Shown: piece after piece, positions 717 through 35,825 of the stretch | Position numbering within the stretch: position 1 is the stretch's first letter | How the letters are laid out: every line of letters begins with the position of its first letter | Assembly (NCBI GenBank): GCA_048213135.1 | Contig: PS015650.1 | Coordinates: 1-35,825 of the forward strand | Reading direction: 5' to 3' | Source of the DNA: Reclinomonas americana ATCC 50394 | Taxonomy: Eukaryota | DNA: 35,825 nucleotides | The notes under the pieces: model-generated | The model's database searches: none | Seen by the model: the letters and a program-made list of their open reading frames with translations, nothing else | What the model was told of the DNA's origin: nothing | Position numbers and translations under genes: made by a program

Positions 717-3700
717 TTACATGGCAGTGGAGAAGACGAGTTTCTGCACGTCGGCCAGCCGCCGCTTCTCGGCCTCAGAGAGCGTCGACTGCATGCGACC
801 ACCGGGACCCATCATGTTGGAGTAGACACGCGCCGTGGGCGACATGATGATCGAGCGTCGACGCTGTCCGTGAAAGGCGGAGGGCGTGGCGTGCCCCGAA
901 GACAGGTCACCCATCGACGTCTGTTGTGCGCGAGGCGAGTATCGCTGCACCACCGCCCCACCACCGCCGATGCCAAAGTGCGCCGGGGACGACACTGCGC
1001 CGGAGACGCCACTGGCGTCGCCACCACCACCGGCCAGACGGCGCAACTCGTCGTCGGCCGGCATCATTGACGACGACCACATATCCATGTTTTTGGCGCG
1101 TTGTACGAAAGACGAGGACGACGACGATGCGCGACTCTTGGGTCGCGGAATCGGCGAGGCATCCTCCATGCCGTCGAGCGTCAGCGGCAGAGGGCGGCCA
1201 CCGCCCAGCGAGAAGAGTCTGTGTCGCCGTGTGGCTGGATCGAGCGGCGATGCGGGCGACAAGGCGGTCTCGTAGTGTCGCGGTGATACGGGAGCCGAGA
1301 AGGCCACCATACCACTGCCACGACGCGCGCGGGTCGACTGACTTGGTGCGGCGAGTGTCGTGGACGACGACTGCAGCGGGTCGACCGGCTGCAGCTCGCC
1401 GTCGAACGACGACAGCGGGTCGAGTGTCACATCGTCGGCGTCGCCCACGTAGCCCTCCTCCTCGATGTCGTCGCCGCCGAACTCGGACTGCCCCGAATCC
1501 CCACCACCGTTCCTGCCGAGCACCACGAATCCGGGAAACAGCGGCTCCAAGTCCACCGAGGAACCGCGCCGGTGTGAGGAGCGCACGAGTCGATGTATTA
1601 CTGGTGGACCGACATCGTGAGCACGCGGGAGGCGTCGGCGCAGAACTGTCTTGTCGCGCATGCCCGGCTGGCGCAAGCCCAGGTGTCTTGCCAGCGCTGT
1701 TTCGGGGAGAGTGCAAGTGAGCGACGAGGAGGAGCGACTATTCAAACAACCATCACCGCCCTCACCTTCATGTTCCGTTCGCAGCTTCCGAGTGGTGGCG
1801 TCCGTGTCGGCTGGCGTGTCTCGCACCACGGTATCCGCTTGCGGCATGGCCACGGCCACGTCGACACTGCCTTGCGTCTTGTCCAGCGGATTTGGCGGCG
1901 CGCTGGACTGCGACTTGTTTAGTGGATTTGGCGGCATGCTGTCGGCCGACGCTGCAACATGCGAGTGGCGTCCGCGACGCTTGCCAGGCGCCGTCAGTTT
2001 GGGCGCACGCGGTGAATCGTCAGATGAGTCTGTTGAATCGGAGCGACGAGTGGACGACATGGCTCGATTTCTGGGGCGGGGTAGGGGGGTGAGTGGCAAC
2101 GACTCGGAGGCGGTCGTCGTCATTGGCACGCAACTTGATGCGATCGAACCACGTCGAGGACGACGGCGACGCATCCTGCCGCTTGTGCAACCAGTCGAGC
2201 ACGGCTTGCGACTGCGGCTGCGTCTGTTGCGGTGCGTCGGCAAAGGAAAAGTAGATGCGGTACAAGCCACGCGCTTGCAGCTCCTCGGCCGCCGCCGCCG
2301 GAACCTCCACGTTGTGCACGTGCAAGAAGTTGACACGGACGGTTTTGATGCCCTGCATGCCAACCACAATATGAGACACGGTGGGGACGAAAGAATTAAC
2401 TGGTGCCACTGCTGACCTTGAACCGCTTGCGATGTACGCTCCACATACGCGCCACCATGGTGTCGGCGGCAATCTCCGCCTGGTCAATGTCGGTGGGGAC
2501 GGGTTCTGGCTCGTTCACCATGTCGGCCGGGTCTGGCACCGACACTTCGCGATACCAGCGACGGATCTTGGATTTCATCTCGTCGTTGATGTATGTGCCA
2601 GCAACATTGGCCGCCGCCTCCTCGTGATCCGCTACGCCACCAGGCCGCGTGTGTGAGAGAGAGTTAGGGGGTGAAACAAAGGCACGGGCTTCTGCAACTC
2701 ACCAGCGGTGACTTCGGTGACGGCGCCCGTGTTGCGCATGCCGAGGGGCTGTGTGGTGGCCACGGGGTTGTCGGGTCGTGACTTGCGGCGCTGCCGGATC
2801 ATGAGCTTCTCACGCAGTCCACCCTGCTCCTCAGCGGCCACCACCTGAGCTCGTTCGTCCACTTGCGACAAAAAGTACCTGCACAGACACACGGTCAGTC
2901 GGCTCATTATTGTGCACGTAGACAACTCGCTGCGACGCACCTCTCGGAAAACATGAGCGACTGCATGGGAAACGTCTTGTGGAAGCGAGCCAACATGGAG
3001 AACTTGTCGGCGGCGCGCTGTGAACGCAGTCGCATGCTCGCCCTGCACATCAGTCAGAGGCAAGACAACTCACACGGAATGACAGCATTTCTCACACAGA
3101 CCGGACGTTGTCGGCGGCCTCGCTGGATCGTGAGGCGGCCGTGGGCGGCGGAGTGGCAGTCGGGAAAGACATGTCCGCCAGAGACATATCCCCGCCAAAG
3201 GTGCTGTCGTGACCGCTGCGAGCCGACACATCGGCACCACCGCGACTCCTCGGTCGACTGCGACTGGCACCCCGGCTGGGCGGTCGATCCGACGACTTGC
3301 CGCTGCCCATTCGCTTCTGCGGGGCCACAGGCGGCAACTGGCCCGGCGTCGACGGCCCACTTTCCAGCATCATGGTCGACATGTTCACCGATGGGAGCGG
3401 AGCTGTGGTGTCCAGCATCGTCGTACCCACGAATCGAGGTTCCGATCGACTGTTTCCGGTGATGAACAGGATGTGCGACGAGAAGCACACACACTGGTTG
3501 ACTGGACGCACCTGGCAGCTGACATGATGGGCGACTGCACCTGCTGTGTGGGTGCAGGCGATGAGCCCTGCGGTGAATTGGCGTGTTTCTTGGTCGGGCT
3601 CTCCAAGAACACCGCCATCAGCCACTCCAGTTGTTCACTGGCTCCCAGCGAAGTCGGCAAGCTCTCTGGCAAATCCGGTTGCGACGTGGTGGTGGCAAAC

Positions 3701-6218
3701 AGCTCCGTCAGTGATTCGTCAATCAGCTGTGAGCAGGCAAGATAAACAAGGTGAGCGACACCAACACTGATAGCGGCGCGAATGGCCATGCACTTACCGG
3801 CAGCTCTCGCGACGGCCCGGCCGACGATGTACCACTCGCCGAATGCGACGAACGGCTCACGAGCGCTGGTCGTGTGGTCGAGTGCGCAGTCGGGGATCGC
3901 GACGCGCTGCAAGGGCAGGGCGGGGGTGAGCGATGCGCGGAGGATAAGCAGACGAGGAGCACGAAAGTACCTCTCTTGTGCAATGGAAAATTGAGTCTGC
4001 ATGCAGAGAAGCGCAGGAATAGGGATGAGCATGGGGGAAATAGCACAGGTTGCACGCCGCAGCGACTTACCGCAGGTGCTCGAATGTACCAGTCGACGAG
4101 CATCTTGGCCTGACGCGGCAGCATCAGCGGATTCTGCATGGAGAATGCAATCTGTGTTGCGATAGACAGTGAGCGGAAATGGTTCATCGGAACCAGACAC
4201 TGCGAAACGCCTGACCTCGGGGCAAAAGACACGAATCGGTAGCGTGCCGATAATGGCCACGTCGTGCATGATCTTTTGCATGTAGGTGCGTTGCTTCCAC
4301 TCGAATTCGGAACCAGTGGCAAACGCAGACTTTTGGTTGGCAGTGTACGTCTGCCAAACGCGAATGCAGGTGAATTACCGTGTCCACACCCTGTCTCTTT
4401 CAAACAACGCGATGCACACCTGCAACGCTTGGTACGCCTCCACCACGTACACGGTGGCTGTACGCAGAGCGGTGACCAGCCGACGGACTTCGGTGCGCTT
4501 GTCGTTGATGTCCATGAGCAACTCGCTGTGCAATCAATCCAGCAGTCAGCAGTCAGCGACTGTTGAAAAAACACCGTGAGCTCGTGAGGCGCAACTCTTG
4601 GGTCAGGAACTTGACCGACTCGGCGATTTGCTGTCAACATCAACGCGTGAGACGAAGAGGAACGTGGCGCAGGCGCAAAGGCTACGTGCGGAACGCAACG
4701 ACGATGGAAGCAAAGAACGACTCGCGATGATTGATGCACTGCGACACCTTCGAGAGGAGGTGGCGCGTGTTGAGGCAGCGATCCAACTGTGTTTCCTTCT
4801 GGGTCAGCTGTCGAGTGGGAAAATCACTGCAAACAAGCCACACAGAGGTGTACCTCCTCCGCCACCGCTCGGCAGTGCTCCATCGACGGGCGCACACTCG
4901 TGTAGTGCTCCTTGGTGAAGGCGTGAAAGTACGAGTCGCGGATGCCGATCTCCGACCACAGACGACGAAGCATTTGCCAGGCATAAGCAAATGGGTCATC
5001 GCGAATGTCGGAGTGAGTGCGTGCGAGTGCGTCGGTCCGCTCACGAGTCTGCTGCGGACCGAGCAAGTGACATGACTCGATCAGCATCGGTGTGCCGAGG
5101 TCGGGGAGCGCTCGCACAGTGCGCTGTGCGGAGAAGAGTCAGCATGGCAGCGGCAGTGGGGAGCACATGCGCAGCAACGTACGTGAATGATTTGTGACAC
5201 TTCGTACTCTGCGCAGCAACACCAACCAATCATGTGTGAGTCGCAGGGCAACTTGGGGCACCGAAGCGATCGGTCACGCAACTGGCAATCTCGACACCGT
5301 CGTTGAGCAGCGTGACAGGGATGTGTGCATAGTCGCCGAACCGCGCCGCGTCCTTCAGCAGCTGCGACATGACATTGGGCTCCAGTGCATTGCTCTGCAC
5401 ACCACGCAGCCGGGCGCCACCTCCAACGGCACCGAGGCGACCAGATGGAGTCGCACTGGGCAGTGTTGCACCGCGACCACCACCAGCAGCAGCACCACCA
5501 GTCGCCTATACATCCAAGTCGACATGAGACTCCCGCACAGCTATCATCATCATCATCCTCGCCAGCACACGCAACGTTAGCATCCGCAAACAGGCGTCGA
5601 CGAGTCGGCTTCTCCAACTGTGGCAAAACGACGCCCGCACTGGGCGAACCACCTATCACACGCTCATCTTTAGCCACCAATCGACTGCAGCAAAGAAGAA
5701 CGATCCTCTCGCGCGCTCTCTCTCTCATACCTGCAGTCGGCGATCCAGCACCCTCACCACCTGCGCCACCACCCTCCGCCGATCCACCACCCGCCCCACC
5801 ACTCCCCGGTGCATCGCCTGCCACCCCGCTCCCACCTGCACCCGCCGCACCACCAGGCGTGCCCACCATTCCTGGCGAACCCATGGCCGACGGCAACGAC
5901 GAGGTCGTGGTCGATCGCAACTTTTGCTTCTTCTCCACTCGCCGTCGCCCATCGGGCGTCAGACCCATCACATTGCGCAACTGAGAAGTGGGTGAGCACA
6001 CAGGCCACGCACGAGAGGCAAACACACAGACCTCATCCACTGATCTTGCGGCATGGAGCTTCCTCAGAAAGCTGTTCTTCTCGATCCTGCGACGATTGAT
6101 TGTGTGCGTGAGTGACTCATCATCAGTTGTCTTGTGTGTGTGCGTGTGAGCCTGCGATGCGCAACAATAGCTTCCGATGTTCCTCCTCAAAGGCCTTGGC
6201 CGTCTGATTGGCGGTCAT
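717..6218 (-). CDS. Large multi-exon (~21 introns) protein of unknown function: helical N-terminal/central block, long Ser/Pro/Gly-rich disordered C-terminus
   Basis: Exons join in frame across GT-AG introns from a probable start MTANQTAKAFEEEHRKLLIEKNSF (ATG 6218). The path runs through ...EVRRLVTALRTATVYVVEAYQALQ|TYTANQKSAFATGSEFEWKQRTYMQKIMHDV... to ...RRLADVQKLVFSTAM-TAA (717). In-frame stops fall only in predicted introns. The start codon is inferred. Confidence 0.75.
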
Positions 6219-6332
6219 GCAACGTTCCAAACTGTCGATGGACGGCGTTGACAAGCGCGTACACACGTGTCACCACCGCCCATCATCATCATCACGTATC
6301 TCAAACTTCAGACAGAGGGAGAGAGAGAGAGA
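6219..6332. promoter_or_regulatory. Putative bidirectional promoter / shared 5' region
   Basis: Only 114 nt separate the divergent predicted start codons. No specific core motif was identified. Confidence 0.45.
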
Positions 6333-9259
6333 ATGAGTGGGCGATCGTCGCCCTCAGAGCCCGCGCTCTCTGTGAAACGAGTTGCGTGTCTGAGTGTGTA
6401 AGCCCTTGTGTGCGCGAACATGCATTCACTCGGTTTTGTGCTCTCTATCTCTCAGGCGGCTCTTCGCGCCACTGCCACCAACAAGCAGGTGTTGGGCCTG
6501 CGCACGCGTGAGCAGAGCAAGACGGCGTTTGATGAGATGCACCGCCTGCTCTGTGGTGTGTGTGTGTGTCTCTCATTGTGAATGCCCGTATTCTTCCTTC
6601 TCATCAGCAAACAGAGAGCGCGGAATCCCGTGTGACTCCCGATCCACTGCGTGTGCGTGATCTGGTGCGCCTGAAGCCCATGGACTTTTCGCAACAAGCA
6701 GGTTGCGCGTGTGTGTGTGTGCGCGCACGCTCTCCTTCTCTCTTGCCTGCTCTTGTGTGTTCAGTTCGCTCTTGGCGCACACACAGAGAACGGGCAGCAC
6801 GTTTCTCCGCTGGTGGCGCGACTGCGTGCACAGATGGCCGCCATGCAGCAGCGCAAGCAGGAAGAGGTAGACGAGAGGCAGAGGCAGCTGGCGGCGTACA
6901 TTCGCACGTCGCCTGCCTCCTCTTCGTCGTCGTCGTCGTCGGCGCCATCTCTATTGGCCGGACACGCAGTGTACAGGCAGCCGGGCGCAGAGGGTGAGTC
7001 GTTGTCGTCGACACACCGACGCAGCTCCATGCCTGCGCTGTCGATGCCGAGTGTCGGTGTGGCGGTGAAAGACGGGCGCAAGAGTCGTCGGCGAGTGTCA
7101 TCGCCGCGGGAGCGACCGGACACGCTGGAGGTGACTTTTTTCCTGATTCAGCGTCTCACCCCCCCAGCTTTCTGACGCGCACACGCGGACACAGGATCGT
7201 GTGCGAAAGCGTATTGAGTTGTGTCTGCGCAACCCGGAGGCCGCCGCGCAGCTCATTGATTATGCGGAGCAACTTGAGCGCAATTCGACAGAGGAGATAA
7301 GGATGCGGCAAGACGCCTCGCGCACTCGCTTGCAGGAGCACAAGGTCTGTGCATCTGTATATGTACACTTTGTTTTCGTTGGTCTGACTTGCCACGCACA
7401 CGCACACGCACGCAGCTGTGGCTCCAAAACGTGCAGCGTCTGCTCCACCTGGAGGTGACCAGTCCGAAATCGCACCGGTCGCCTCGGTCACGCTCTCCGT
7501 CCCCGTCACCGCCGCCAGAGCTGCTCGCCTCCCCAAAGAGCATGCTTGAGGTCGTGGAGCCGGCGGTGCGTTACGAGAGGATTCGGCGACCGATGGTGCG
7601 CTCGCCGATTGAACAGCTCCGCATGGTGGCCGAGCGGCAGGAGCTGTTGCGCAGGGAGTTTGAGGAGCAGCAGGAGCGCACTCGGCAAGACGTGGAGCGT
7701 AAAGCACAGCAGGCAGAGGAAATTCGCAAGCGCTTGGAGCGGGAGGAGGTCTGCACATGTGTGTGTCTGCTTGGTCTCGTCGAGTGTGTCGTCCACTCAT
7801 TCGCACGTGCGCACCGCGCCACAGGAACATCGACAACGATGTCGATGGTGGCTGAGTGTGGTTTCCTGCTTTTCGCGCATGTCGTACTGGACTATGGTTC
7901 TGGAGGCCACTCGTATTCGGCGAGCGGAGATTGAGAAGTTTGAGCGTGCCGTGTGCACGCTGCAGCGTCGCGTGTATCCCATGGTGCACCTGCGAGTACG
8001 TGTTCGCCGACGACGAGCTGCCAATGTTATCGCTCGCAAGTTGCGTGTTTTGCTCGTACGTGCTTCTTCCTTTCCAATGTTCATGCCTCTCATCGCCCAT
8101 TTATGGAAAAATAGCTTCTGGCGCTACCGCATGGGCAAGCGCATTCACCGCAAGCGTCGTGCCTGCGCGATTCTGCGATCCATGCTCTCCAAGAGCCGCT
8201 CCATCACTCGCTGCTTCGACTATCTCACCATTTTTCACCGACGAGGTACGTGCGACGGGTGCACACGCACAACGAGGCATCCATCTCATCTCAATTCTCC
8301 TGCCGCCCTTCGCAGTGCGCTTGGCGCAAGATGTCGTGCGACATTTGCTGGAGCGAGTGCGGGCGCGCAAGCGCACGTTCATCCAACAGTGGCAGCGCAA
8401 GGAGGAGGAGCTGCGTCGGTGGGCGCCCGACGAACGCCGTCGCCGCATGAAGCAGCGACGAGAGGCCGAGGCACAGGCGCGAATCGCAGCCAGCGCGGCA
8501 AGGCGCAATCGGCGCAACATGGTCAGTGCACGCATCAGTCTCTCCACCGTTCGTCTCATCGCCTCACTTAGTGCGCGGTGCAGGGCTCCTTCACGTCGAT
8601 GATGTCCATGACACACGCGCAACTGGTGGCCGAGCTGCATGCCGCAGAACCTCTGCCGCCTCCGCTCACTCCCCAGGAGGAGGCCATGAGCGTGCTGGTC
8701 GATGCGTATGCGGACTCGGACTTTGTGTTGGAAGAGTCCATCCGCAACCGCGTCATTGATCTGGCATGGCGCTCCCGCCGACGCCGCTACCGTTTGCAAA
8801 CGCGCGCCTACAAGCGGACGGTTGCCGAATCGGCGTGGTCCTCTGTGCGCACCAAGGTGCTCAGCCGGGCGGCGCAATTCGCCAGTGTCGTTGCGTGGTG
8901 GTGGAGGAGGAGGAGGGAGGGAGGAAGATGCTCGAGTGTTTTGTTTTCACGTGTGCTGACGATCGGTGTCAGACAATCGGCGTCAAGCTCGGTCGAAAGA
9001 ATATCATGCTGGCAGAGTTGCCAAAGCGGCCACGATTGCAGGTATCCATGCTCTGTGCTGCAGTCGACTTTCCTTCTGTTTGCTGCCTCACTCACTATGA
9101 CAACCACCCCAGCTGCTGGCCACGGAGAGCGAGCTGATTATTTACATGGCGCAGGCGGTGTTGGAGCAGCAGACGGGAAAGCCGTGCACTGACATGTTCA
9201 TGGAGCCGCAACCGGCGGCACACTCACCGACACACTCGATGTCAGCCGCCGCCAAGTAG
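6333..9259 (+). CDS. Multi-exon (11 introns) basic coiled-coil protein with degenerate IQ-like motifs; function unknown
   Basis: Spliced reading: MSGRSSPSEPALSVKR|AALRATATNKQ...QELLRREFEEQQERTRQDVERKAQQAEEIRKRLEREE|EHRQRCRWWL...VCTLQRRV...AANVIARNFWRYRM...VRLAQDVVRHLL...HSMSAAAK-TAG (9257-9259). The IQ resemblance is by eye only. Confidence 0.75.
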
Positions 9260-9304
9260 TGTAATGCACGTGCAGTTATTGTTGTTGTTGCTGTTATTTC
9301 TTTT

Positions 9305-10982
9305 TCAAGGGTATTTTCTGTATGGTGCCGTGGAGTCCTCCACCGGTAGTAATGCGCGGTCATCACTACTTCGCGATACGACGCTGCTGGTGGTGGTGGA
9401 GGTCGTCGTGTCCGCGGTCATTTCGTCGAGTGGGATCTGTGCCAGTTGAGTGAGGGATTGCGAAGGAGAAGAGAGAGAACGGGTGCGGCTCAAAAAAAAC
9501 CTCTTGTTTTCGCGAGTACTTGGAGAAGCGCGGATCCACATACAGGAAGAGCAGAATGCCCGCGCAAGGGAGGAGATCCATGACCTGCACAAGCGTGTTG
9601 AGTGCGATGGAGCGAAGCGGTGCGGGCGTCGGATCGAGGTCACCCAACCTGCACGACGAAATACACCATGTCCCAGTACTCGAGGAAGTTTTGCAGGTTG
9701 AACGCCAGAAGACCGGCACCGACAGCCACAGGGATGCAGTAGCCCGTGTAGCCGGCGGCGAGGAACATGACCTGCACTCACCACGTTTCATGATTATGAC
9801 GGATGTGACTGGAAGCAAAAAAGCGCCCAGTCACGTGCCTTCAACAACGATCGTCGTGCTCGCTTCCGCAAGGGCCCTCCGCCCTCTTTCATCCTTTGCT
9901 GGTTCGACGAGCGCATCAACACGAACAGCATGCACCACGTGATGACGAGATTGCAGGCGATGGTGAGCTGTCGGATCGCCATCCAGTCAGTCGGTGGAGA
10001 CAAGAACAAGGGGCACGGAAGAAGCCGCAGCGCACCAATACAAAGGCAAAGTAGATCTTAATGTCGGTGGTCTTCATCGTTGTCATTTGCACCATGCAGC
10101 TGACGACTGCGCATGGGAAAGAATGAATGCAAGAACTCGTCGTCGTCGTCGTCGGAAGCAACGCAACTGTCTCCAATCACCACTCCACTCACAAGCAGCA
10201 GCGCGATCACATAGCTCACGACCGAAAACGCAGCAGCGCGGAACAGCAGTCGCAACCTGGAAGGAGAAGAAGAAACCACACATGGCAACCGGAACACGAT
10301 CATCGTCATGATCATCATACAAGCAGGCAGAACAAACAAACGCGACAAACACCGCACCACAGCAGCATGAGCAAGAGGCCGGTGAGGTTGACAGTGACAT
10401 AGATCACCACCTAACGCGCACATTGTCGGTGCTCTTTTCATGACGGAAAAAGGCGAATGACGCAACAAAGGGCACATGCAATGCAATCGAGTTCGTGGTC
10501 GGATCACACAAGTGTTTGTTGAACACGTTGTAGAATGCAGCCACTGTGCACAAAGAGCGTGAGGTTCGTGCACACTCAAGAGGAGGAGACAAGCACACAG
10601 GTCACTCACCAATGAGATGTGTGCACACCAACACACGCAGCACTGTGTACAAGACGCGACTGAACCGATCATCGGCACTGACATGGAACGATCTGCGCTC
10701 GCGTGTGTGAGTGAGGGAGAGGTGCATTGTGAGAGACACGCACACACACACACACACACACACCGAAAGATGCGTATGTCTTGTCTCAGGCGATAGACAG
10801 TGATGCCAACGCCGCCGACGCCAGTGGCGAGGAAGAGGATGTTGAAGATGAGGTACGCCTGTGTGCATCCTGCGACACGTGCGTGCGGGGAGGAGTTACT
10901 CAGCTGAAGCACGAGTGTGTGTGAGTGTGTGAGTGTGTGAGAGAGAGACGGAACCTGCAAATGCCTCTGCGCCGTTGGTCAT
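9305..10982 (-). CDS. Seven-transmembrane protein, probable THH1/TOM1/GPR137-like (DUF1084) family
   Basis: The spliced product (10 introns) has seven hydrophobic segments: YLIFNILFLATGVGGVGITVY; VLYTVLRVLVCTHLIVAAFY; VPFVVIYVTVNLTGLLLMLLW; AFSVVSYVIALLLVSGVVIGDIV; IYFAFVLLTIACNLVITWCMLFVL; VMFLAAGYTGYCIPVAVGAGLLAF; MVYFVVQVMDLLPCAGILLFLY. The Trp at the end of TM3 and the (E/D)LLP in TM7 recall TOM1/GPR137. It has a Ser/Thr-rich tail and a TGA stop. Confidence 0.75.
9772..9838 (-). other. GC-AG intron in the 7TM gene
   Basis: AAG|GCACGT...GTGCAG|GTC is the only nearby junction found that keeps the frame into TM6. Neighbouring GT dinucleotides are in the wrong phase. Confidence 0.7.
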
Positions 10983-11178
10983 GTGGAAGAAAACGAGGAG
11001 AGTCGTCGGAAAGTGGATTTACAAACAACACCAAAGCTACATTGTTTTTCACCGCCCGGAAACGGCAGGAGGACGATGGTCACTCCGCCTCTAAGAAAGA
11101 AACACACACTTAAACACCTAAAACACTCCCCAGCGAGCTGCGGGTATTAGAACTACAACAATTACAACAACAATTCGA

Positions 11179-14100: not shown

Positions 14101-14855
14101 TGGCAAACGCGAGAACAAAAAAACACGAATGAGATGCACCCGCACACGGAAAGCACCACTCCTGAGCGCCGCACACATCATCTGGTACGCCTGCTCACTG
14201 CCGAGACCGGCGGCCGCCAACTCTGCCTGCGCATCGACCTGCAATCGGATGCACTCCCAGAACGTGTCCTGAAGATCACTGGCAGCCATGAACACATCGC
14301 CGCTGTCAGACCTACACACACACACACCCGCATGAGCATCAACGCACGTACTCGCCACACGCTGCTGCTGCTGCTCACCGCGATACGACAAACACATTGG
14401 AGACTCCATCGACGACACATCGTGCAAACGTCGCCGTGCGAACATACATATCCAGCGTCGACTTGGCCTCCGTGTCCCCATGCACCAGCACACTCTCAAA
14501 CGATCCACCCACACCCGCGGAAGCACCACCACCACCACTAGGCGTCGTCACGCGCACCGACAATCCTCGCGGAACCCCGGCCGAATCGCGACTGCTATTG
14601 CTCGCTGTGCTGCTCGTGCTACTGCTACTTCCACTGCTCACGCTGGCGGGAGTGGCAGTGGCGATCACTGTCGCCACTCTCGTCGATTCACCAAACGCAT
14701 CGACTCGATAACTGCCGCCGGCTTTCCTGTTTGGCGACACCACGCCCGATGAGTGTTGCCGGCTGGATGATGGCTTACACCTGCAAACGGGAAGAGTGTG
14801 TGAGAGAAAGAGACGCAGGAAGAGGGAGGCTGGGGGGGAGAGCTGCTGACCCCAT
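11179..14855 (-). CDS. Class I 3',5'-cyclic nucleotide phosphodiesterase with N-terminal MGC dual-acylation motif
   Basis: Spliced catalytic motifs are intact: [87 protein letters not shown]. There are 15 introns. The first coding exon ATGGG (14855-14851) splices to give MGCKPSS. Confidence 0.95.
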
Positions 14856-16064: not shown

Positions 16065-16297
16065 TACTCGTCGCACTTGTTCGTGTCCTGTTCTTCTTCT
16101 GTTGCTGTTGTTGTTGTTGTTTGACCTTTTCCTCCCCCCTGCATCTTGTTTGGCTATATCATTAATTGATCTCCGTGTCTACTGCGCGTTCATCTGGCCC
16201 TCGGGCTCTTTCGCTCTCTTTCTCCACTCCTCCTCTTTCCCACTCATCGTCCTCTCGCGCTGCCCAAGCGCACCTCCTTTTTCCCCTTGTTCCTCTT

Positions 16298-19311: not shown

Positions 19312-19475
19312 CAAGAATGAAATTGCATGTCCGGACTTGGGGACTTCTCATCGTCGATATTGAGTGTGTTGAGTGCACGTGAGACCCGCACCCGTCGTGT
19401 TCACTCACACACACAGGCACCGACGCGTGTCCACGCACACAACAGCCGAGAGTGACACAGAGAGACACAGAAAAA

Positions 19476-22142: not shown

Positions 22143-22265
22143 TCTCCGTGGTGCTCAGCAATGTTTAAGGAGTGTATGTGTGCGTTTTGTGAAATCGTAC
22201 TTTGTGCTCTGCAAATAAGGCGTTCATTCACACAATCTCTCCGCCGCTGGCTGCCACGGCAGCGC

Positions 22266-25200: not shown

Positions 25201-25407
25201 CGCCCGTCGAGATGCGCATCAGCGGCACCTCACGTGCGTCAATCACCGACTCGACCTCGCCAACGAGCCACACGTCGCCGACTTGCACTTCCACCACGTC
25301 GGCCACGTCAATGAACGGCTCAATGTTGACCTCACCCAGCGAGTACACCGCTGCCACGGAGTGTCAGTCACCGGCACTGGAGATCACAATGTGCACACAC
25401 ATAGAAA

Positions 25408-25502
<95 letters not shown>

Positions 25503-28500
25503 CGACGACGACGGTACGGCGGTCGGCCGGACGACGACGACGACGNNNNNNNNNNNNNNNNNNNNNNNNNNNNNNNNNNNNNNNNNNNNNNNNNNNNNNN
25601 NNNNNNNNNNNNNNNNNNNNNNNNNNNNNNNNNNNNNNNNNNNNNNNNNNNNNNNNNNNNNNNNNNNNNNNNNNNNNNNNNNNNNNNNNNNNNNNNNNNN
25701 NNNNNNNNNNNNNNNNNNNNNNNNNNNNNNNNNNNNNNNNNNNNNNNNNNNNNNNNNNNNNNNNNNNNNNNNNNNNNNNNNNNNNNNNNNNNNNNNNNNN
25801 NNNNNNNNNNNNNNNNNNNNNNNNNNNNNNNNNNNNNNNNNNNNNNNNNNNNNNNNNNNNNNNNNNNNNNNNNNNNNNNNNNNNNNNNNNNNNNNNNNNN
25901 NNNNNNNNNNNNNNNNNNNNNNNNNNNNNNNNNNNNNNNNNNNNNNNNNNNNNNNNNNNNNNNNNNNNNNNNNNNNNNNNNNNNNNNNNNNNNNNNNNNN
26001 NNNNNNNNNNNNNNNNNNNNNNNNNNNNNNNNNNNNNNNNNNNNNNNNNNNNNNNNNNNNNNNNNNNNNNNNNNNNNNNNNNNNNNNNNNNNNNNNNNNN
26101 NNNNNNNNNNNNNNNNNNNNNNNNNNNNNNNNNNNNNNNNNNNNNNNNNNNNNNNNNNNNNNNNNNNNNNNNNNNNNCGACGAGGTGACGTCCTAAACAA
26201 CGACAACGACTGTTTCAGTGCCTCGCAAACGACAACCTATCGTATTGTTGTGCACATCACGGAACTCGGATGACACCGCGAGTGCCGGCCACGGCAGCCA
26301 TATCGCCATTCCACTGCACACTGGTGGTGGAACCGACGGCTGTGCGCTGGCAACGCTGACGCAACAACGCCACATCAGTCTCGATAAACACGGGCAGACC
26401 AGCCACCAAATCGTCCACGCTGGCCAGCGCTGCACCAGGTGCCACCGCACCAGCAGCGGCGGCAGCAGCAGCTGGAGCGGAACCAGAGCCAGCGGCCGGC
26501 GCATCGGCAGCCACACGGTACAACGTGTCCCACGGCAACACCCAGATGTCGCCACTCTCAAAGCGCACACGAGCATTTTGTGTCGGTGTCACCTCCTGCA
26601 CAACAGCAACAACGACAAACAAAGAATGAGACACTCTGCTTTCCATCACTCTCGCCGCTCTCTTGACGCGATGCGACGCAACGCGAACAACGCCTCGCTT
26701 GCCAGCAATGGCCGCCATGCTTGAGTTCCAGCCGACGTGCGTGCGTGTTCCTGGGGCCGCGCGTGTGCACCGCTGCTGCAGTACCGCCGAGTCGCGTTCC
26801 ACAAATACTTGCAGGTCGACCACCAGGTCACCGACGCCAGCGAGAAGTGCTCCAGGGCGAGCTGCACCAGCCGCACCAGGGGCGGCGGCAGCAGCAGCAG
26901 CGCCAGCAGCAGCGGCGGCCGCCGCCGGCGGGGCCGCCGGGACAACTTCGGCCACTCGGTACAGGGTGTCGAAGGGCTGCAGCATGCATATACATGTGTG
27001 TGTGTGTGAGTCGGNNNNNNNNNNNNNNNNNNNNNNNNNNNNNNNNNNNNNNNNNNNNNNNNNNNNNNNNNNNNNNNNNNNNNNNNNNNNNNNNNNNNNN
27101 NNNNNNNNNNNNNNNNNNNNNNNNNNNNNNNNNNNNNNNNNNNNNNNNNNNNNNNNNNNNNNNNNNNNNNNNNNNNNNNNNNNNNNNNNNNNNNNNNNNN
27201 NNNNNNNNNNNNNNNNNNNNNNNNNNNNNNNNNNNNNNNNNNNNNNNNNNNNNNNNNNNNNNNNNNNNNNNNNNNNNNNNNNNNNNNNNNNNNNNNNNNN
27301 NNNNNNNNNNNNNNNNNNNNNNNNNNNNNNNNNNNNNNNNNNNNNNNNNNNNNNNNNNNNNNNNNNNNNNNNNNNNNNNNNNNNNNNNNNNNNNNNNNNN
27401 NNNNNNNNNNNNNNNNNNNNNNNNNNNNNNNNNNNNNNNNNNNNNNNNNNNNNNNNNNNNNNNNNNNNNNNNNNNNNNNNNNNNNNNNNNNNNNNNNNNN
27501 NNNNNNNNNNNNNNNNNNNNNNNNNNNNNNNNNNNNNNNNNNNNNNNNNNNNNNNNNNNNNNNNNNNNNNNNNNNNNNNNNNNNNNNNNNNNNNNNNNNN
27601 NNNNNNNNNNNNNNNNNNNNNNAATAAATCACCACAAGCCACCGGCATGAGCAGCAAAGACGGGGGAGGGACGAAATAAACGAGCGCACCAATGCCCACG
27701 AATCGCCATTGTCGAAAATGACACGTGCGTTGCGCGATCCAGTTGGCTCCTGCAGTGTGCGCACAAAACCGGTGAGCCCACCTGTCTTGTGCAAGGCACA
27801 ACACAAAGTCACACGTAACTCGAATGACGCCGCGGGCGCCGGCAATCGCCGACATGCGTGAGCTCCAACCGGCACTGGACGACGCACCGGGTGCGGTGCG
27901 GCCGCAGCGCTGCTCGAGCAACGCAGCATCGCGCTCCACAATCACAGCCAAGTTGGCCTGGATGTCGTCGACTCCAGTCAGTGCCGCACCAACAACCGGC
28001 GGTGGTGGCGGCGGCTCCTCAATCAGAGCGTCGAACGGCAGACCCCAAGGACGGGGCTGATTCGGTGCCTGCATGCGGCAGTTGGGGCCAATGACCTCAG
28101 TCACACGGCCACGCTGGCCAGCAAGTGCAGCCATCGCCTCGACCCAGCCCACTGGATCCGAGGCGCCCGGAGCAGGGCGCGTGCACAGTCGACGCAGTTC
28201 ATCGCCGTCGCCAATGACGCGGACATACATACCCACGCGCAGCTGACCGGCGTTCTGCAACGGCATCACCGCCTGTCGAAAAATGAAGGAGAAAAGAGAG
28301 AGAAGTCAGTGCGTGCAAGCGATGAACTCGCATGAGCTTGCTCTAGAGTACCTGGGCATTGAAACGAGTGACCTGTGGCAAAAGGACAGTGATGAGCAAG
28401 CAAACAATGCGAAGGTCACAAGCACGCGGATACAAACCTCGAATGGCGCAGGGGAGACGGCAATCACCGACACCGCAGTGGAGATGACTGTGGACAGGCG

Positions 28501-31500
28501 GAAGTGCGGAACGTCGACGCCAGTCTTGTAGGTCACCGGCTGGAACGTCTGGCGGCAGCGGATCGGACCCGGAGACACCACAGACGGCACCAACCACCGG
28601 TCGACCAGCGTCGGCGGCATCTTCGATTCTGGACCGCTCTCCGGAGCTGCGCACCGTGGGTAAGCAACTACCGGAAAGGGAGACAGTGAGAATATAGAAA
28701 GCCGCCGTACCATGCACCACCAGCTGGCCGCTCGACAAGTCGGCACACAGGAGCCCGGCAGTCGAGTGCCCGATGCGTCCGTCGCGAGTCACCTCCCAGA
28801 TGCACTCCGCCGCCGGCGAGTCGCGCGAGAACGGCGTCAACGTCAGACGCCCGCCAGAACCGACGGAAAGGGCGCGATCGCCAAACATGAGACACACCGC
28901 TGCGCACCACAAACATACGTCGTGAGCCCACCCCAGTGTTACACAATCTGAGTGGCAAACACGAAATGTCCACGCAACGTCCGACAGCAGCACGCCGAAT
29001 CACCGGCGAAACGCCCTGCGACATGGGCTCGTGCAACAGGTCGCCACCGAGGCCATTGTTGAGCAGGCGCACTCGTGCAACCACGGGTGTGCGAGCAGAT
29101 GCAACGCCAATCTCTTCGACCACACCGTGCTGCTTGCGCACAGCAGGTCCGCGCGTGCAACCGCGAGAGTGGTACAGCACCTGGCGGGAAAAAATAAGGC
29201 AACGTCAGCGACACGAGCAAACACACACACACACGTGACAGTCGCGAGAGACAAACCTCTGTGCCGCGACGCACGGCGTGCACAAACGGCTGGTCAAAGG
29301 AGGAGCACGGTCAGTACGGGCACATGCTCGGGGCATCGACACACAGCACAAACCGGTTGCTGCAACAGCCGGATGGAGTGCTGAAGCGAGCTGGCGGCGT
29401 ACAAGAGTTCCGCATACGCTTGTACTTGAACATCTGCAATCGGCGAGCTGCACTCGGCCAGTTTGGCTTCGGCGACGAGTGTCTCCAGCAGACGGCCCAG
29501 CTCCACTGCAACACAAAAAGCACAGCACAAGTGAGTAAACAGAGGCGGTGGGACTGGGAGACGACGAATAAACACTGTTGTGTGCGTACCTTGAGCCTCA
29601 CGCGGGTACGATGTCAGCATATCTGCACAGCAGGAAGATTAGCCACAGTAACAGTCGTGCCGAAAATGAGCACCACGCAGATGCGAACCTCGAGCCACGT
29701 ACAAGGCCACCAGCCGGTCCTGCAGGGACCAGCCGAGAGTCTGCGACGAGAAGGCAGCCGTCACCAGACGCTCCAGCGCATCCGGCGAGAAAATCGCCTC
29801 GGGCGCCACAGCTCGGCGCACGCTGGAAGCGAGCACCGACAACGCAAAGCGCACAGAAGTGTTGGCGAAAGCACCAGCAGCCTCCGGAGCTTCCACTGGC
29901 GACACGGGCAGGTTGTGACGCGTGCCGAGACGCGTCAAGGCCACATTCACCAGCGAGCCGAGGGCGCGCTGGTCGCGCACTGCAGTGAAGAGGCCTTCGA
30001 CCAAGCTCGACACATCTGAGAAAGAGTGTTAGCAGCAAACACAAACGGCAACTTGCGTAGAACCCTTCGTCAAAAAAAACCTTCATCAGACAGCACGGTG
30101 CCTGCTGAGCGCAGCACCGCCTTCCACATTTGATCCCAGCTGTCGATCTGCAAGCTGGCCACCGACAACGGCGCATTGGTCGGCCAGTGCTGGAAGGCGA
30201 CGAGCAGAGCTGCACGGCCCTCGGCCACAGCAACACTCTGGCCCAGCAACGCGAACCACGCAGCCTGTCGTTGTCCCGGCGAGAGCCTCTCCACCAGAGA
30301 GCCGAGTCCGTGACGAGACGACGTCTCGTCGACTGCGCGCAGCACAAATAATCAGTGAGGTCACTGCATGTTCACCATAGCAGACTGCACATCCACGCAC
30401 ATCCAGGCGCCGCGAGCGAGTCGGAGTACAGAGAGCTGGGCGACGCGCTTCCACTGCCGCTCGCAGCCGAGGCAGACGCTCCGCCACTGGCGGCCGCAGG
30501 AGCAGCGGCACCTTCGGCAGGCGGCAGCGCAATGTCGGCCACCATGACCCAGTAATCACGACCGGTTCCTGTGGATGGACATTCAGCACGGACGAACGCA
30601 ACAATGTGAACGAAACAAAAATGAAGCGCGGCACGAAACGGTCCCAGTGAACGCGGAATGGGCGAGTGTTATCACCGACATCCACGCGGTTGACCGAGCC
30701 TGCGAGCATACTTCATAAATGGACCGACAACAAGCACCGCACTGCTCGTCTGCATCGCAAACCTCGGTCGCCGACGGCAAACACGCCTTCCGAATCGCGA
30801 GCGGCCACGACAACAGTGCCATTCTCCACATTGGTCCGCAGGTACGCCAGGTACTGCGTCGTGTCGCCACCAAAGTCCGCCAGTGTGCGCACACTCGCCG
30901 CACTTGATGAACCTGGTGCGACAGAGGTGAACTCAGCAACAGCATAAAAGCATGCGCGCGCGTGTGTGTGCACAATGGAAACGCACCAGCAGCGGGCGCG
31001 CCAGCCGCAGCACCGGCAGCAGCCAGTGTCAGCTGATCAGCCGGGAAGGTGGCACGCTCGCCGCCAGTCAGCTGCGCGCGCGCGTACACACGCAGATAAG
31101 GGCCATGCAACGCGATTTCCACGCCATTTCACGAGGCATAGATGAACATACCTCGACCGTCACCGATGTGGTGGCCGGCATCGCACGCAGTTGGCTGAGG
31201 TACGTGCGGTCCACGCTGACCACACGACCTGTACGGCCAGAATCCTCCGCCCCGATGCACACCTCGGTACCAGGTTGGACACTGTGCACAACATGGTGAG
31301 CAGGGCACGCCAAAGCAGGTAAGCACAGTGACACACGGGAGACGCAACGTGCGGGCCACATACGCGGCATACTGTGCCGCTGAGGCGAATTCTTCGCGCG
31401 GACGCACTGCCGATACGGCGGCACTGGGCGACGGAGCAACGTCACCGCGCGAAGCCCAGAAGGATTCCGGAGCGGTGGCAAATGTTGGCACATCAGCCGG

Positions 31501-34500
31501 GGCGGCGACGCCGCTACCACTTGCACCACTGCCGCCAATCTTGATGCCAGGAACACGCTGCGAGGCAAGCACGGTGAGCGTGGCGATTTGAAAAACTGCT
31601 GCATGTTGCGGAGCACTTTCCCCAATTCACCTTTTTCACGCATGCCTCGCAAAGATCGTAGCTGCACAGCGAGCAATGCCACATGCGCTCTTGCTGGTGA
31701 ATGTTCTTGGTACGGCACACATCGCACTGTGCACTTGCGCCAAGTCCGTAGCGAGCAACATAGCTCGGTGGGCACTGTCGGCAGAGCATCTGCATCCGGT
31801 GACCTTTGTCGCACATGACAGAAGTTCCGGCTGCCTCCGACTGCACACACAAGTAAGCATCTCAATTGCTTTGAGATTAAAAAAGAACACCCCGAACCAG
31901 CAGTGTGGCCAGTNNNNNNNNNNNNNNNNNNNNGGAGACGACATCAGGCTGAGAACATCAGGCGACGCATCGACCAGGCTCGGGCTCGGACTCATGTCGA
32001 CCGACGACCGATCCACGGGGAGAAGCCACGAGAGCGACTTGATAACTTCGGCCTCGGACGGACCAGCTGCATGCAAACACGAACACGCACACAAACGCAT
32101 GTGAGCACAAGAAAGCAACCGAGCATGCCACTCAAGTCACTCACCTCCGCGGCTTGCCACCTTGACTGCAGCAAATCGACGGCGCAGGCTACCCAACACC
32201 TCATCGCCACGCGTCGTGCGAGCGCTTGACATCAAGCGCACGAGCAGGCCGACGACTGGCGGACTCGCATCTGCATGAGAGAAACACACAAAAGATGATG
32301 TGAGTGGCCCTGCAACAAGAGCTGCGATTGTGGGAGCGAGAGGAACACACCTGCACCGTGGTCGTACAGTACGGAGAGCACACGACAACCGGCGGCGGCC
32401 AAGGCGGATCCGCGCAGGTGCAGCGCGAGCGAGTCGACCAAGCGTTGCGGCGTAACCGACGGGCCCGCCACCACACCACACAGGCTAATGGCAGTCGTCA
32501 GCGCAGCCGGCAAGTGCTGCAGCTTCTCGCAGAACGCCGGTGGCGGCGGCTCCACCTACACGAGCCAGCAAAAGGTGGTCAGCTTATGTTCAGCAGTTAT
32601 TTCAAGTAGCAAAACACGTACCGAGTCCACAGCTTGCAGCGAGGAGGTGTCGAACACCACCGACACCGACGGCTCCGACGCGAAGATGCACGTGCAACGG
32701 CCGGGGATGGGAACATCACGAGCAGAAATGACACCCGATCCGCGACCGGCCATCTGAATGGTCGCACCCTCGATTGGCACAGGCCAGTAGCCACCGAGAA
32801 CGGCCATGGCCACCAGCGCCAATCGGAAACTCTGAGTCGGGAGCGACTCGATGCCCTCGACACCACTGGCGGCGAGCGGCTGCAGCGCCTCGTCCAGCAT
32901 GCTGGCCACCTGCGGTCCCCAGTGCGCGTCGCTGGCCAATCGGCGAAGCATAAAGACGTACGACTGCGCCTTGACCGTGTTAACCGAGCGAGCCTCACTG
33001 CTTTCGGCTGTGTGACACCGGAGAAAACGGGTAAGCAAGGGCATGCACTCTTGTCTCACACAGACGAGAGCGCGCACCATCGATAATGGTGGGCAGTCCA
33101 TTTGCTGCCTCGTGCAAGAAGTACGACAGCGGACGCTGCTCGTGAAGGGCGCGTGCGAGATCGAATGCTGCCGGTGGAGGAAAAACAGCAAAAAGGTGAG
33201 TGAGGGGCGGGACAGGCGGCACACTGCTCGGCACCGGCAGCACTCACAAGCAGAGAGCGGAACCATGCGACGGAGGAGATGAACAGCCATGATCACCAGG
33301 CTTTGGTCCTCCAGTGCAGGCGACTCTGTAAACACGGACGTACAGTGTGTGTGTGTGTGTGAGCACTCGACACAGCTGCATCGTCGCCCTCGAGGACACA
33401 CACCCTCGGTAATCTGAATGAGAGCCAACACGCTACCGAGATGGCGTTCGGTGACAGGCACAAAACTGGCTGTCGTGCCAGTGGCGAACTGGACCAAGCG
33501 GTCCGTCGTGTCGACCTCGCGCGCAGCCACGCCGACCGTGATCAACATGTGCGCCGCCTCGAAAAGAGCATCGACGGCAGACGAGCCCTTCACACTCGGC
33601 GGAGCCGTGGCCAACAATCCGAACAGAGAGAACAGCATGTCGGCAATCATGTCCAGCAACTCTGCAGTGATGGACGGTCAGTCAGCTACCGCACGTGCGA
33701 CATTGCAGGGACGGACTCACGGATCGAGTCGGCCGAGTGGTTCTGTCCTGGCGTAATCGACGCGCCAAAGAAGCACGAGAGACTCATCAGGGCCAGCGAG
33801 CTTGCCTGACGCAATTCGTGAACTGCATGCAGTACGCGTTAGGCACACACGCACATAGTGAAGAATGGAAACATCCCCACATTCCACCACTGACGAACCC
33901 GTGGGACCCGGCAGACCAGCCTGCTTGCCACACTCGACCAACGGTGCCACATCTGACACCGACGCACGGAGCATGGAGCGCAGCGCCGAACCAACAGCAT
34001 CTGACAGCACCGTCACGCCACTGTCCGGACGCACGAGACCGCCGAGAGTTTCCACCAGTGCACGCACGTCACTGGGCGCGGAACCGTGCGGACCGAGCAG
34101 CAGGCGCAGACCGAGCACGTTGCGGAAGAGAGCCAGCGAACGCAGTGGAGTTCCTGCATCGGCAGACGAGGCGCTACTGCCGCCGGAGGCTGGCGACAAT
34201 GCCGAAAGAGGAGAGGTAATATCCGGCACCTCAATCAACCCGGCCGCTGCGTAACAATGAGAGAATGGTCGGCAGTAGCGCGAACAAGTGACAAACCTGA
34301 ACCACCGACAGCAGCGCGAATCATGCTGTAGAATGACGAACGGAGATTGTCCGCTACCTCAATCGTGCACGCCTGCGCACAACAACAACAACAAAAGACA
34401 AGTCGGGTCAGTCTCGTCAGCAGGGAGCACCAAGGACGGATGACACAAACGCACATGCAGGCCGTGAGCGTAGTGACGGCTGTTGACCGAATTGGCCACC

Positions 34501-35825
34501 CACTCGAGCACACTGAGTGTCAGCATTTGCTCGTGGCGGTGACTGTCGGCGAACAAGAGAGCCAGCGAGCGGAAAATGTTGCTGCGGAGGGTGGCTTCCG
34601 AGACCTGTCGGTCCACCTCCTGGCGCACAGCGACCGCGTCGTGATCGCTTTGAACGACAAAATTGATAATCTGTGCGCACATGGAGCAAGCATAAGAATT
34701 CAGCCACCAGGAGGGCCTAGGCACGCAGTTCCGAAACATTCTGCGTAATGGTCTCCAACAGCGCGCTGTCCTTTTGTGCCACCGAGGGCGAGAAGGTGCG
34801 AGAGAGCTGCGAAAACCAAGCCGCAGATGCATGTGAGCAGTGTGCCAGCACGTGCGACTACAGACGAGGCAAGAGTGACTAACATCGGTGATCTTGCGCA
34901 TCTGACGGAAGGCGCGCTTCACCACCTTCCAGCCCCACGAGTGACCAGGAGTGGCAGGTGACACGGGCTGTTGCAGCGGATTCCGGAGTGAAACACAAGC
35001 AGAAAACAAATGCAATAAAACCACACACACACTCACCTCAAGTGCCGACTGGATGGCGTTGGCATCGCCGTACTCTTCGGCGTCCACCGACAAAAGATCG
35101 GCGCGACTCGCCAGCGACAGCACCAAGTCCAAGCGTCCCCACATGGGCTTGCACAGCGCGGCAAGAGCCTCCTGTTTGGTCAGAAGCGGGTCCGTGCTCT
35201 GCTTGCTCGCGAGCACTTGTCGGAGCTACAACAAAGCCATCGCACAGATCAGCAACCGGTGGCACTCTGCCCATTCTTCTCCTGCCGACATTCTCAAGTC
35301 CACGAAACATTCTGCGCCATGCGGTACGACTTGAGAAGGTCGGGCGAGCGCTCGCCAACAATGGCGTACGACACCAGTCGCCGGTGCTTCAGCAGCACAG
35401 CAAACATGGCTCGCACAAAGTCATTCGCTGGCACGGGGAAAAAACGAAGCAGTCAGACAACGACGACTCGCCAACAAAGTACAGCCAACAATGGATGGAA
35501 TGCAGTGACGCAACCGACTGGCACAGTCTGCAGCTGGCGCTCGTCCTTGCCGGCACTGCCCGCCAGTGACTGATAGAACGCGCCACCATGACCGGTTCCG
35601 TCAACAACCTCACGCAAGAAGGCATTCTCCTCCATCTCGACATCCTGCCCCGCAGCCACCACTCCGTGTGCAAAGAGCGGAAGCGCCAGCAGGTCAGTGA
35701 ACGGACCGCTGTCCACTGCGCTCATGGAGCGTGAAAGAATCTGCGTGCGTACGGCACAGGTAGCCTCAGTACACGAGCGTGTAAAAGTTGAATGGCAAAC
35801 GCAAATGCTTGCACAAACCGCGACT
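22266..35825 (-). CDS. Giant HERC2/HERC1-like HECT E3 ubiquitin ligase (5' end outside window; spans three gaps)
   Basis: The spliced HECT domain reads WNVKFLGEGGIDGGALYHDSISEMATEL...PLLIPSPN, ELKPNGRNITVTWETLPEYIDL, LETRVCGEPNV, YLWAALRDMTPQERSLFLRFISGRRRLP, catalytic LPEASACFQKLRWPSY, TSAIDLD, and ends ...DEGDATE-TAA (22266). About 50 introns are visible. Confidence 0.93.
22390..24010 (-). other. HECT catalytic domain (approximate bounds)
   Basis: Motifs as listed for the gene. The PLLIPSPN and final IDLD motifs resemble HERC1/HERC2-type HECT domains. Confidence 0.92.
25409..25500. repeat. (CA)n microsatellite, ~46 units, intronic
   Basis: Uninterrupted acacac run next to an assembly gap. 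Confidence 0.97.
25546..26177. other. Assembly gap within E3 gene
   Basis: Run of N. Confidence 1.
26178..28250 (-). repeat. At least four ~75-aa Mind bomb-type SH3 (MIB-REP/SH3_15-like) repeats in the E3 ligase, separated by Ala/Pro linkers
   Basis: The copies are GMYVRVIGDGDELRRLC..GWVEAMAALAGQRGRV; LAVIVERDAALLEQRC..GWSSRMSAIAGARGVI; LQVFVERDSAVLQQRC..GWNSSMAAIAGKRGVV; LPVFIETDVALLRQRC..QWNGDMAAVAGTRGVI. Copies 1-3 end in W-x-LP-F/W-D-x-L; copy 4 runs into the gap. Confidence 0.75.
27015..27622. other. Assembly gap within E3 gene (possibly wholly intronic)
   Basis: Run of N. The flanking exons ...DSWAL| and |PFDTLYRV join in frame to complete a repeat. Confidence 0.95.
30525..31405 (-). 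other. Two tandem CPH (Cul7/PARC/HERC2)-like domains
   Basis: The segments REEFASAAQYAAYVARTVQPGTEV...GRVVSVD and ADFGGDTTQYLAYLRTNVENGTVVVAARDSEGVFAVGDRGSV...RVHWDRTGRDYWVMVADIAL match the CPH pattern (F..Y..YVR.....G..V...GD.G....W...G..YWV). The second is the stronger match. Confidence 0.75.
31630..31820 (-). other. ZZ-type-like zinc finger
   Basis: CDKGH...CDVCRTKNIHQQERMWHCSLCSYDLCEAC. Confidence 0.8.
31914..31933. other. Small assembly gap (20 N)
   Basis: Run of N. Confidence 1.

Follow-up and report, generated by a model that had tools for sequence, protein, structure and literature searches.

Introns in a 35,825-base stretch of the genome of the eukaryote Reclinomonas americana ATCC 50394 (GenBank assembly GCA_048213135.1, contig PS015650.1, positions 1 to 35,825 of the forward strand), referred to in its whole length as the window, begin with one of two kinds of 5' splice site, or donor. 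Standard donors resemble GTGCGT, with a G-T at intron positions +5/+6 (GTNNGT), whereas in the 32 shifted donors of the form GTNNNGT, typically GTTGCGT, the downstream consensus is displaced by exactly one nucleotide from the GU at the predicted cut. The last base of the preceding exon, position -1, is mostly G in front of standard donors and mostly another base in front of shifted ones, and this association between -1 G and donor class is confirmed here as real. The shifted class makes up 32/117 (27%) of the called introns when defined as GTNNNGT and 39/117 (33%) when defined by a register of +1. With a probability of roughly 55%, we read these donors as sites at which a U1-type reader is bound one nucleotide out of register and the cut is kept at the GU.

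The Last Exon Base and the Donor Class

Introns were called with our own dynamic-programming exon-intron parser, which uses a codon model, an acceptor matrix, intron composition and a length prior together with a donor score, a two-class mixture over intron positions +1 to +9 only; the exon base at -1 was not scored. As a donor-model-free first pass was too noisy, the parser was seeded with six donor patterns, three of them of the GTT type, so the two classes of the mixture (GTGCGT-like, weight ~0.66; GTTGCGT, ~0.34) are not independent of the seed. At parser penalties from -14 to -8 introns remained unremoved. The kept genes held 130 called introns, and the analyzed set comprises the 117 of at most 125 nt in six gene regions (717-6292, minus; 6333-9259, plus; 9366-14500, minus; 16497-19311, plus; 19317-22142, plus; 22273-35825, minus), with 96 introns on the minus and 21 on the plus strand. 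Left out before counting were all calls above 125 nt and any that fell outside these regions, the latter including minus-strand calls at 6293-7830, which compete with a plus-strand gene, calls past the stop codon of a HECT gene, and calls at 1-532 and 14972-16304.

When donors are classed by pattern, -1 G precedes 5/32 GTNNNGT donors (A11 C12 G5 T4) and 37/48 GTNNGT donors (Fisher p = 5.9e-8, odds ratio 0.055); it is present at 22/37 of those that fit neither pattern. Classing by the register in which a standard-donor matrix reads each donor gives 8/39 for the +1 register, 46/63 for register 0 and 10/15 for weak donors (p = 2.3e-7). The strict form GTT[GA][CA]G carries -1 G in 4/30 cases, and for matched words the figures are 2/21 for GTTGCGT and 7/11 for GTGCGT (p = 0.0026). 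The contrast persists across three classification schemes and in a rerun of the parser made aware of the -1 base. A preliminary description of this DNA had tallied about 29 of 34 shifted donors without -1 G (5/34 with G), which our 5/32 reproduces, and the donors that it quoted are present (a slash marks the exon-intron boundary): caa/GTTGCGT at 2134, cac/GTTGCGT at 22498 and 31348, ctt/GTTGCGT at 22377 and cga/GTTACGT at 27819. Its figure for standard donors, only about 8 of ~80 lacking -1 G, was too low; we count 20/75 in the -1-blind set and 18/77 in the -1-aware run, numbers that include at least two miscalls.

All introns are predicted, about ten junctions were checked against homologs, and the motif-seeded parser is prone to error, so an artefact of gene modelling or of the hand tally, with no true association behind it, has to be weighed. 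Of the two known miscalls, one is at 12208, where homologs and Pfam coordinates favor tcg/GTGGGT, 9 nt upstream of the called donor, and the other at 2448, where the -1-aware rerun substitutes an intron at 2353-2416 with its donor read as AAG/GTCAGC. However, the -1 base was unused in calling, and miscalls dilute the contrast and do not create it. The contrast is also robust to the choice of scheme and to the rerun, and the strand bias of the GTTGCGT heptamer, described below, is independent of gene models. An artefact is thus extremely improbable.

The -1 effect tracks the register of the downstream consensus and not the T at +3 as such, as GTT donors with G-T at +5/+6 (GTTTGT, GTTCGT, GTTAGT) have -1 G in 7/8 cases and GTT donors with G-T at +6/+7 in 6/33 (p = 5e-4). 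Register-0 donors show no trade-off between exon and intron, with -1 G at 25/35 strong and 31/43 weaker sites. At the strict shifted donors the -1 base is A12 C10 G4 T4 (n = 30) against a codon-position expectation of A5.5 C9.3 G9.3 T6.0, A being enriched (p = 0.007) and G depleted (p = 0.046). The claim in the preliminary description that the shifted class frees the last exon base from splicing constraint is right only in part, given this excess of A. Neither the background nor any other standard position matches this distribution as well as the standard -2 base does (A40 C12 G10 T18, n = 80); the log2 likelihoods are -59.8 under standard -2, -63.5 under the codon-position background and -95.3 under standard -1. 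Such a fit is what is expected if each exon base moves one slot along U1.

The GTTGCGT Word

Independent support for the donor classes comes from the count and strand bias of the heptamer, from the need to keep the reading frame and from homology. GTTGCGT occurs in 24 copies, compared with 9.7 +/- 3.3 expected from dinucleotide shuffling (a count of 24 was reached in 0 of 100 shuffles), and 21 of these copies lie on the minus and 3 on the plus strand, a count made without gene models. Set against the models, 24/24 copies stand in the sense orientation of a gene and 0 in antisense, and 21/24 are called donors, where they account for 21/32 of the GTNNNGT class. GTGCGT, by comparison, is a called donor in 11/59 copies. 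The words GTAGCGT, GTCGCGT and GTGGCGT have 3, 6 and 14 copies with 0, 1 and 0 donors among them (1/23 in total for GT[ACG]GCGT), and the extra base in shifted donors is almost always T. A matrix built from the genome's own standard donors scores GTTGCGT at -8.5 bits when it is read in register 0 and at +4.5 bits when it is read in register +1. Of the three non-donor copies, that at 26359-26365 is exonic in the models, and those at 10460-10466 and 30596-30602 fall within other introns; GTTGCGT may be avoided outside donors.

Junction Support and Shared Intron Features

Judged by reading frame and by comparison with protein families, several of the shifted junctions join the coding sequence correctly. 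If retained, 28/32 GTNNNGT introns would cause a frameshift or an in-frame stop. The model of a class I cyclic-nucleotide phosphodiesterase (PDE) gene shows no indel against homologs across junctions 12585 and 12457. In a HECT E3 ubiquitin-ligase gene, the exon preceding intron 23155-23212 reaches Pfam HECT position 134, and after an 18-codon exon the next one begins at position 156. A GC donor three bases further in (GTT/GCGT) was considered and rejected, as the YHN..HAAD motif at 12585 would gain a residue within its conserved spacing.

Both classes are best read as ordinary major-spliceosome GT-AG introns and are indistinguishable apart from the donor. All 117 introns have GT-AG at their called ends. 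Median lengths are 70 nt for shifted and 69 nt for standard introns, the acceptor has C at -3 in 33/39 and 54/63, respectively, and a YTVAY branch-like motif lies 8-45 nt from the 3' end in 26/32 and 41/48. A search for U12-type signals ([AG]TATCCTT donor, TCCTTRAC branch site) found them in 0/117 introns, and the two donor classes are interleaved within the same genes.

The shifted introns might instead be cut one nucleotide downstream at both ends, as UU...AGN introns, so that the G remains exonic as a normal -1 G. Every shifted donor would then have its -1 G, the frame would be kept, and where a G follows the AG (11/36 junctions) the two versions are identical in DNA. The remaining 25/36 junctions would differ at the RNA level, as with CCG vs CGG at 11894-11958 and AAG vs AGG at 24030-24097, and 21 of them would change a residue. 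The preliminary description correctly gave Tyr for the GT-AG version of intron 12519-12585 and Cys for the version with both cuts moved (the codons are TAT and TGT); across 96 homologs this position has L54 I27 T8 V5 Q1 Y1 C0, which speaks weakly against the shifted cuts, Tyr being rare too. These cuts would also turn junction 11138-11179 into a stop codon, in an intron call that is itself doubtful. The first and last G of an intron and the U at +2 sit in the catalytic center of the spliceosome. Introns starting with UU would be needed here, yet all called introns already satisfy GT-AG. With no positive support, this version is barely credible.

The uniformity of the heptamer, exact in 21/32 GTNNNGT donors, could also be historical, in that GTTGCGT introns might stem from an introner-like insertion with a target-site preference, the -1 composition being a relic. 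However, shifted introns have no mutual similarity beyond the donor. Among 144 intron-intron matches at E <= 0.01, 133 are dinucleotide repeats, and none of the remaining 11 (6 pairs, 13-22 nt) joins two shifted introns. Within the HECT gene, 26193-28272 (minus strand) also holds three or more internal repeats that have diverged (...AG.RG.[VI]R before the junction, E/D... after it); one gives a weak Mind-bomb SH3-like Pfam match, and all are interrupted at the same codon by an intron of phase 0. Three such introns (26193-26265, 26596-26682 and 27750-27819) hold a shifted donor at this one position in different words (GTTACGT, GTTGCGT and GTTCCGT across the three). That diverged repeats keep the donor type in different words argues that the feature has been maintained long-term, and we regard an insertional origin as very unlikely.

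A Proposed Reader Shifted by One Nucleotide

[quoted passage not shown] In standard donors (G/GUGCGU) the first G of this word would be the last exon base. In shifted donors (/GUUGCGU) the second base is U and the sole GU begins at the first G, so catalysis would cut one base further upstream, with U5 and U6 then setting the cut at that GU. The +1 G of the intron would here occupy the slot normally held by the exon's -1 G; selection for G as the last exon base would be lost and -1 would adopt the weaker A preference of the next slot, while the extra T could pair with the A normally opposite the U at +2. We infer that U1 is the reader, pairing one nucleotide out of register before U5/U6 fix the cut. 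A shifted register of this kind, in which U1 pairs displaced by one position and the +1 G replaces the -1 G, has been described (Roca and Krainer, 2009, as summarized in Tan et al., 2016; PMC4856993), and in the account of Tan et al. (2016) U1 merely marks the site and U6 fixes the cut. The preliminary description had suggested that the +1 G may take the -1 position in U1 pairing with cleavage still before the G. This is supported in part, as the A-rich -1 base, the T as extra base and the 7/8 normal-register GTT donors that keep -1 G all fit, but predicted duplexes with canonical U1 are weak.

The same donors can be drawn with a bulge, the +1 G and +2 U pairing normally, one U (+2 or +3) bulging out and GCGU pairing downstream. 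A GUU ahead of the consensus suits the bulged register no less than the shifted one, and the legend to Fig. 1C of Tan et al. (2016; PMC4856993) lists a 5' splice site bulged at +3 (or +2). Moreover, in the minimum-energy duplexes predicted with the canonical U1 5' end (an 11-mer from Tan et al., 2016; PMC4856993, which may not be the host's U1), the +1 G lies on C8 in 9/39 cases, all but one with -1 G. However, a bulge keeps -1 opposite C9, so -1 G should stay favored, and GTNNNGT donors do not show such a preference (5/32 vs 37/48). A bulge could accommodate bases other than U, yet T is the only extra base in use, and the enrichment of A at -1 is not predicted. Taken together, the register-dependent -1 G, the A at -1 and the T as extra base fit the shifted register better than a bulged U, which is an unlikely explanation of this class.

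Several observations weigh against the shifted register. The data come from a single 35.8-kb window in which the introns are all predicted, and GTT-type patterns were part of the parser's seed. The advantage of standard -2 as a model of the shifted -1 base is 3.7 bits over a small sample of 30 sites, and the shifted -2 base is not clearly like standard -3 (log2 likelihood -62.5, vs -61.2 for standard -2). Canonical-U1 duplexes average -2.1 kcal/mol for the +1 class and -6.3 for register 0, values from which the host's U1 may differ, and they pair the +1 G with C9, as the shifted register would have it, in 9/39 cases, with C8 in 9/39 and with C4 or nothing in 21/39. The near-invariant C of GUUGCGU mismatches canonical U1 in either register, and duplexes this weak leave that C unexplained by canonical U1. 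By analogy with Entamoeba and Mastigamoeba, the weak pairing may point to an altered or second U1.

A U1 specific to the lineage, a further U1 or another reader could have co-evolved with GUGCGU and GUUGCGU and read the shifted class in a canonical register of its own. The poor pairing of canonical U1 with GUUGCGU and the almost invariant C are in favor of this, and co-evolved U1 5' ends are reported for Entamoeba (ACAAAC with GUUUGU) and Mastigamoeba (ACGUAC with GUACGU) in a preprint (bioRxiv 10.1101/2022.06.08.495308). However, for lineages that favor C at +4, namely Thecamonas and, with GYGCGY donors, five Mamiellales, the same preprint reports the standard U1 pairing sequence (bioRxiv 10.1101/2022.06.08.495308), so +4 C does not require a changed U1. 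A second reader is also opposed by the likeness of the classes in every other intron feature and their interleaving in the same genes. An Rfam scan of the window returned 0 matches at the gathering score, with no snRNA gene within the window. A lineage-specific or second reader of this kind is rather improbable, and the shifted register of a single reader remains our preferred interpretation.

Genes of the Window and Their Shifted Introns

The window has ~60% G+C, four N runs and about one intron per 300 bp. The majority of genes lie on the minus strand and three on the plus strand. By the measures of open spliced frames, PDE alignment and HECT collinearity, the exon-intron models behave like real genes. 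The class I PDE gene (9366-14500, minus; Pfam PDEase_I) holds 11 GTNNNGT and 9 GTNNGT donors, and its spliced domain aligns with homologs over 310 residues with 4 gaps (E 2.6e-77), indel-free at six junctions. The very long HECT E3 ubiquitin-ligase gene (22273-35825, minus; Pfam HECT) contains 3 N gaps, continues past the window end and holds 13 GTNNNGT and 22 GTNNGT donors. Its exons are collinear with the family at consecutive Pfam positions (24-86, 93-134, 156-199, 202-298), and its three N-separated spliced segments of 907, 1010 and 1300 codons have 0 internal stops, compared with 57-65 stops in each unspliced frame. The other gene models are at 717-6292 (minus; uncharacterized), 6333-9259 (plus), 16497-19311 (plus) and 19317-22142 (plus). 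A protein search with a PDE exon gave 602 matches, the best at 54% identity; searches with this exon, HECT exon 22499-22804 (minus) and exon 32559-33677 (minus) found no relative above 54% identity, and for the HECT exon the ESM Atlas returned only generic HECT clusters.

Shifted introns are given below by exon end and intron start and rest on a parser call unless stated otherwise. The minus-strand gene at 717-6292 has caa/GTTGCGTG at 2071-2134 (frameshift if retained), aga/GTTGCGCC at 4526-4595, gtc/GTTGCGTT at 4631-4699 (in-frame stop if retained), cca/GTTGCGTG at 5209-5282, aac/GTTGCGTG at 5506-5575 and att/GTTGCGCA at 6087-6165. On the plus strand, the gene at 6333-9259 carries cga/GTTGCGTG at 6381-6455, cag/GTTGCGCG at 6702-6786, which is among the few with -1 G, caa/GTTGCGTG at 8040-8114, in frame and stop-free and based on signals only, and gtc/GTTGCGTG at 8890-8972. 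Calls of lower confidence on the same strand are gca/GTTGCGCA at 16874-16936 and gcc/GTTGAGTG at 17614-17673, both in frame and stop-free, and a shifted-type donor with -1 G, gag/GTTGAGAA, at 20684-20742.

Within the PDE catalytic domain (minus strand), atc/GTTGCGTG at 11894-11958 has its junction in a variable loop of the homolog alignment, cga/GTTGAGTT at 12351-12457 has a junction without indel relative to homologs, and gct/GTTGCGTC at 12519-12585 has its junction codon in the conserved YHN..HAAD motif, whose spacing is exact with the GT donor only. Elsewhere in this gene are gca/GTTGCGTT at 13121-13190, cat/GTTGCGTC at 13479-13539 and, with -1 G and an intron that is in frame and stop-free, tag/GTTGCGTC at 13896-13967. 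To these are added aca/GTTGCGTT at 10107-10167 and the shifted-type donors cag/GTTGGGTG at 9585-9648 (-1 G), tca/GTCGCGTC at 10544-10660 (extra base C) and cag/GTTCCGTC at 10870-10954 (-1 G), the last two of lower confidence. Downstream of the PDE domain, at 9366-11180 (minus), the model runs into hydrophobic, membrane-like segments with poorly supported intron calls and is unreliable there. At 12149-12217 (minus) the upstream donor tcg/GTGGGTGGC is followed 9 nt later, in the same frame, by ggc/GTGCGT. Homologs and Pfam coordinates favor the first of these; use of the second would lengthen the protein by Val-Gly-Gly, and the pair may represent a tandem alternative 5' splice site.

The minus-strand HECT gene has ctt/GTTGCGTG in its tail at 22306-22377, cac/GTTGCGTG directly past the HECT domain at 22416-22498 (Pfam HECT and parser call) and gac/GTTGCGTC inside the domain at 23155-23212 (Pfam collinearity). 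Further along are aca/GTTGCGGC at 23668-23734, the shifted-type aac/GTCAAGTT with C as extra base at 23853-23922, and gca/GTTGCGTG at 24030-24097. The repeat-conserved position, based on the internal protein repeat, is occupied by the shifted-type cga/GTTCCGTG at 26193-26265, by cgc/GTTGCGTC at 26596-26682 and by cga/GTTACGTG at 27750-27819. The others are gac/GTTGCGTG at 28900-28978, cac/GTTGCGTC at 31282-31348, the shifted-type acc/GTTTCGTG at 30569-30639 and aat/GTTTCGTG at 35226-35308, and tcg/GTTGCGTC, with -1 G, at 35428-35514.

Neighboring gene models stand ~40-190 bp apart, convergent ends included (532-717, 6292-6333, 9259-9366, 22142-22273), and such tight spacing suggests a compact genome. 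Coding G+C is ~0.69 at the third codon position and 0.66 and 0.52 at the first and second, a weak bias despite 60% G+C, and T exceeds A on the sense strand of genes. Microsatellite runs of (GT)n or (GTGC)n occur in several introns, as at 25351-25498 (minus), 10693-10763 (minus) and 6556-6614 (plus); if such introns were retained the frame would stay open and be translated as Cys-Val repeats.

Known Systems and Significance

The nearest parallel is the human shifted register. Tan et al. (2016; PMC4856993) tested an oligo, ACA/GUCAAGUAU, that is laid out like CA/GTTGCGT in the window, with CA/GU followed by one further base and the consensus. Going by the summary in that paper, the human register concerns atypical sites, whereas in the window it would concern 27-33% of called introns. 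The word of the window, GUUGCGU, is also predicted to pair weakly with canonical U1. Registers with a bulged nucleotide at +2/+3 are likewise established (Roca et al., 2012, cited in PMC4856993 and PMC9311317), and GUU donors can be drawn with a bulged U, but the loss of -1 G and the T-only extra base set the window apart from them.

The need for -1 G in the window depends on the intron side of the donor, which amounts to a context-dependent donor code. Compensation between the exonic and intronic parts of the 5' splice site is known and is captured, for example, by dependence decomposition in gene finders. The dependence seen here resembles it in this respect but, unlike known compensation, is on the register of the G-T at +5/+6 and not on strength. 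Among lineages with C-rich donors, Mamiellales (GYGCGY) and Thecamonas (+4 C) are likewise similar to the standard class, which is GTGCGT-like with CTGAC/CTCAC branch-like motifs. For these lineages and those with a co-evolved U1, the parts of the preprint drawn on here describe no second, one-base-shifted class, and the window is far more intron-dense (bioRxiv 10.1101/2022.06.08.495308). Literature searches on shifted and noncanonical registers gave human and tunicate work, with no lineage rich in shifted donors among the matches and abstracts listed; searches for GTTGCGT with intron and for GUUGCGU gave only unrelated papers among the matches listed. In our assessment this is a known mechanism used at unusually high frequency, and what appears to be new is the frequency of 27-33%, the near-invariant word and the clean loss of -1 G.

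As a tentative extension of this reading, the genome as a whole may follow a two-register code, in which the same reader marks about one third of introns one nucleotide out, the cut is determined independently at the first GU, binding register and cut site are systematically uncoupled, and thousands of junctions have their last exon base released from the need for G; an altered or duplicated U1 5' end may accompany it. If true, this would offer a natural, large-sample system that separates U1 recognition from U5/U6 choice of the cleavage site and would allow the splicing constraint on the last exon base to be measured. It would also bear on how U1 co-evolves with unusual donor words. Gene finders would stand to improve, as donor models with a single register would misplace or miss such introns.

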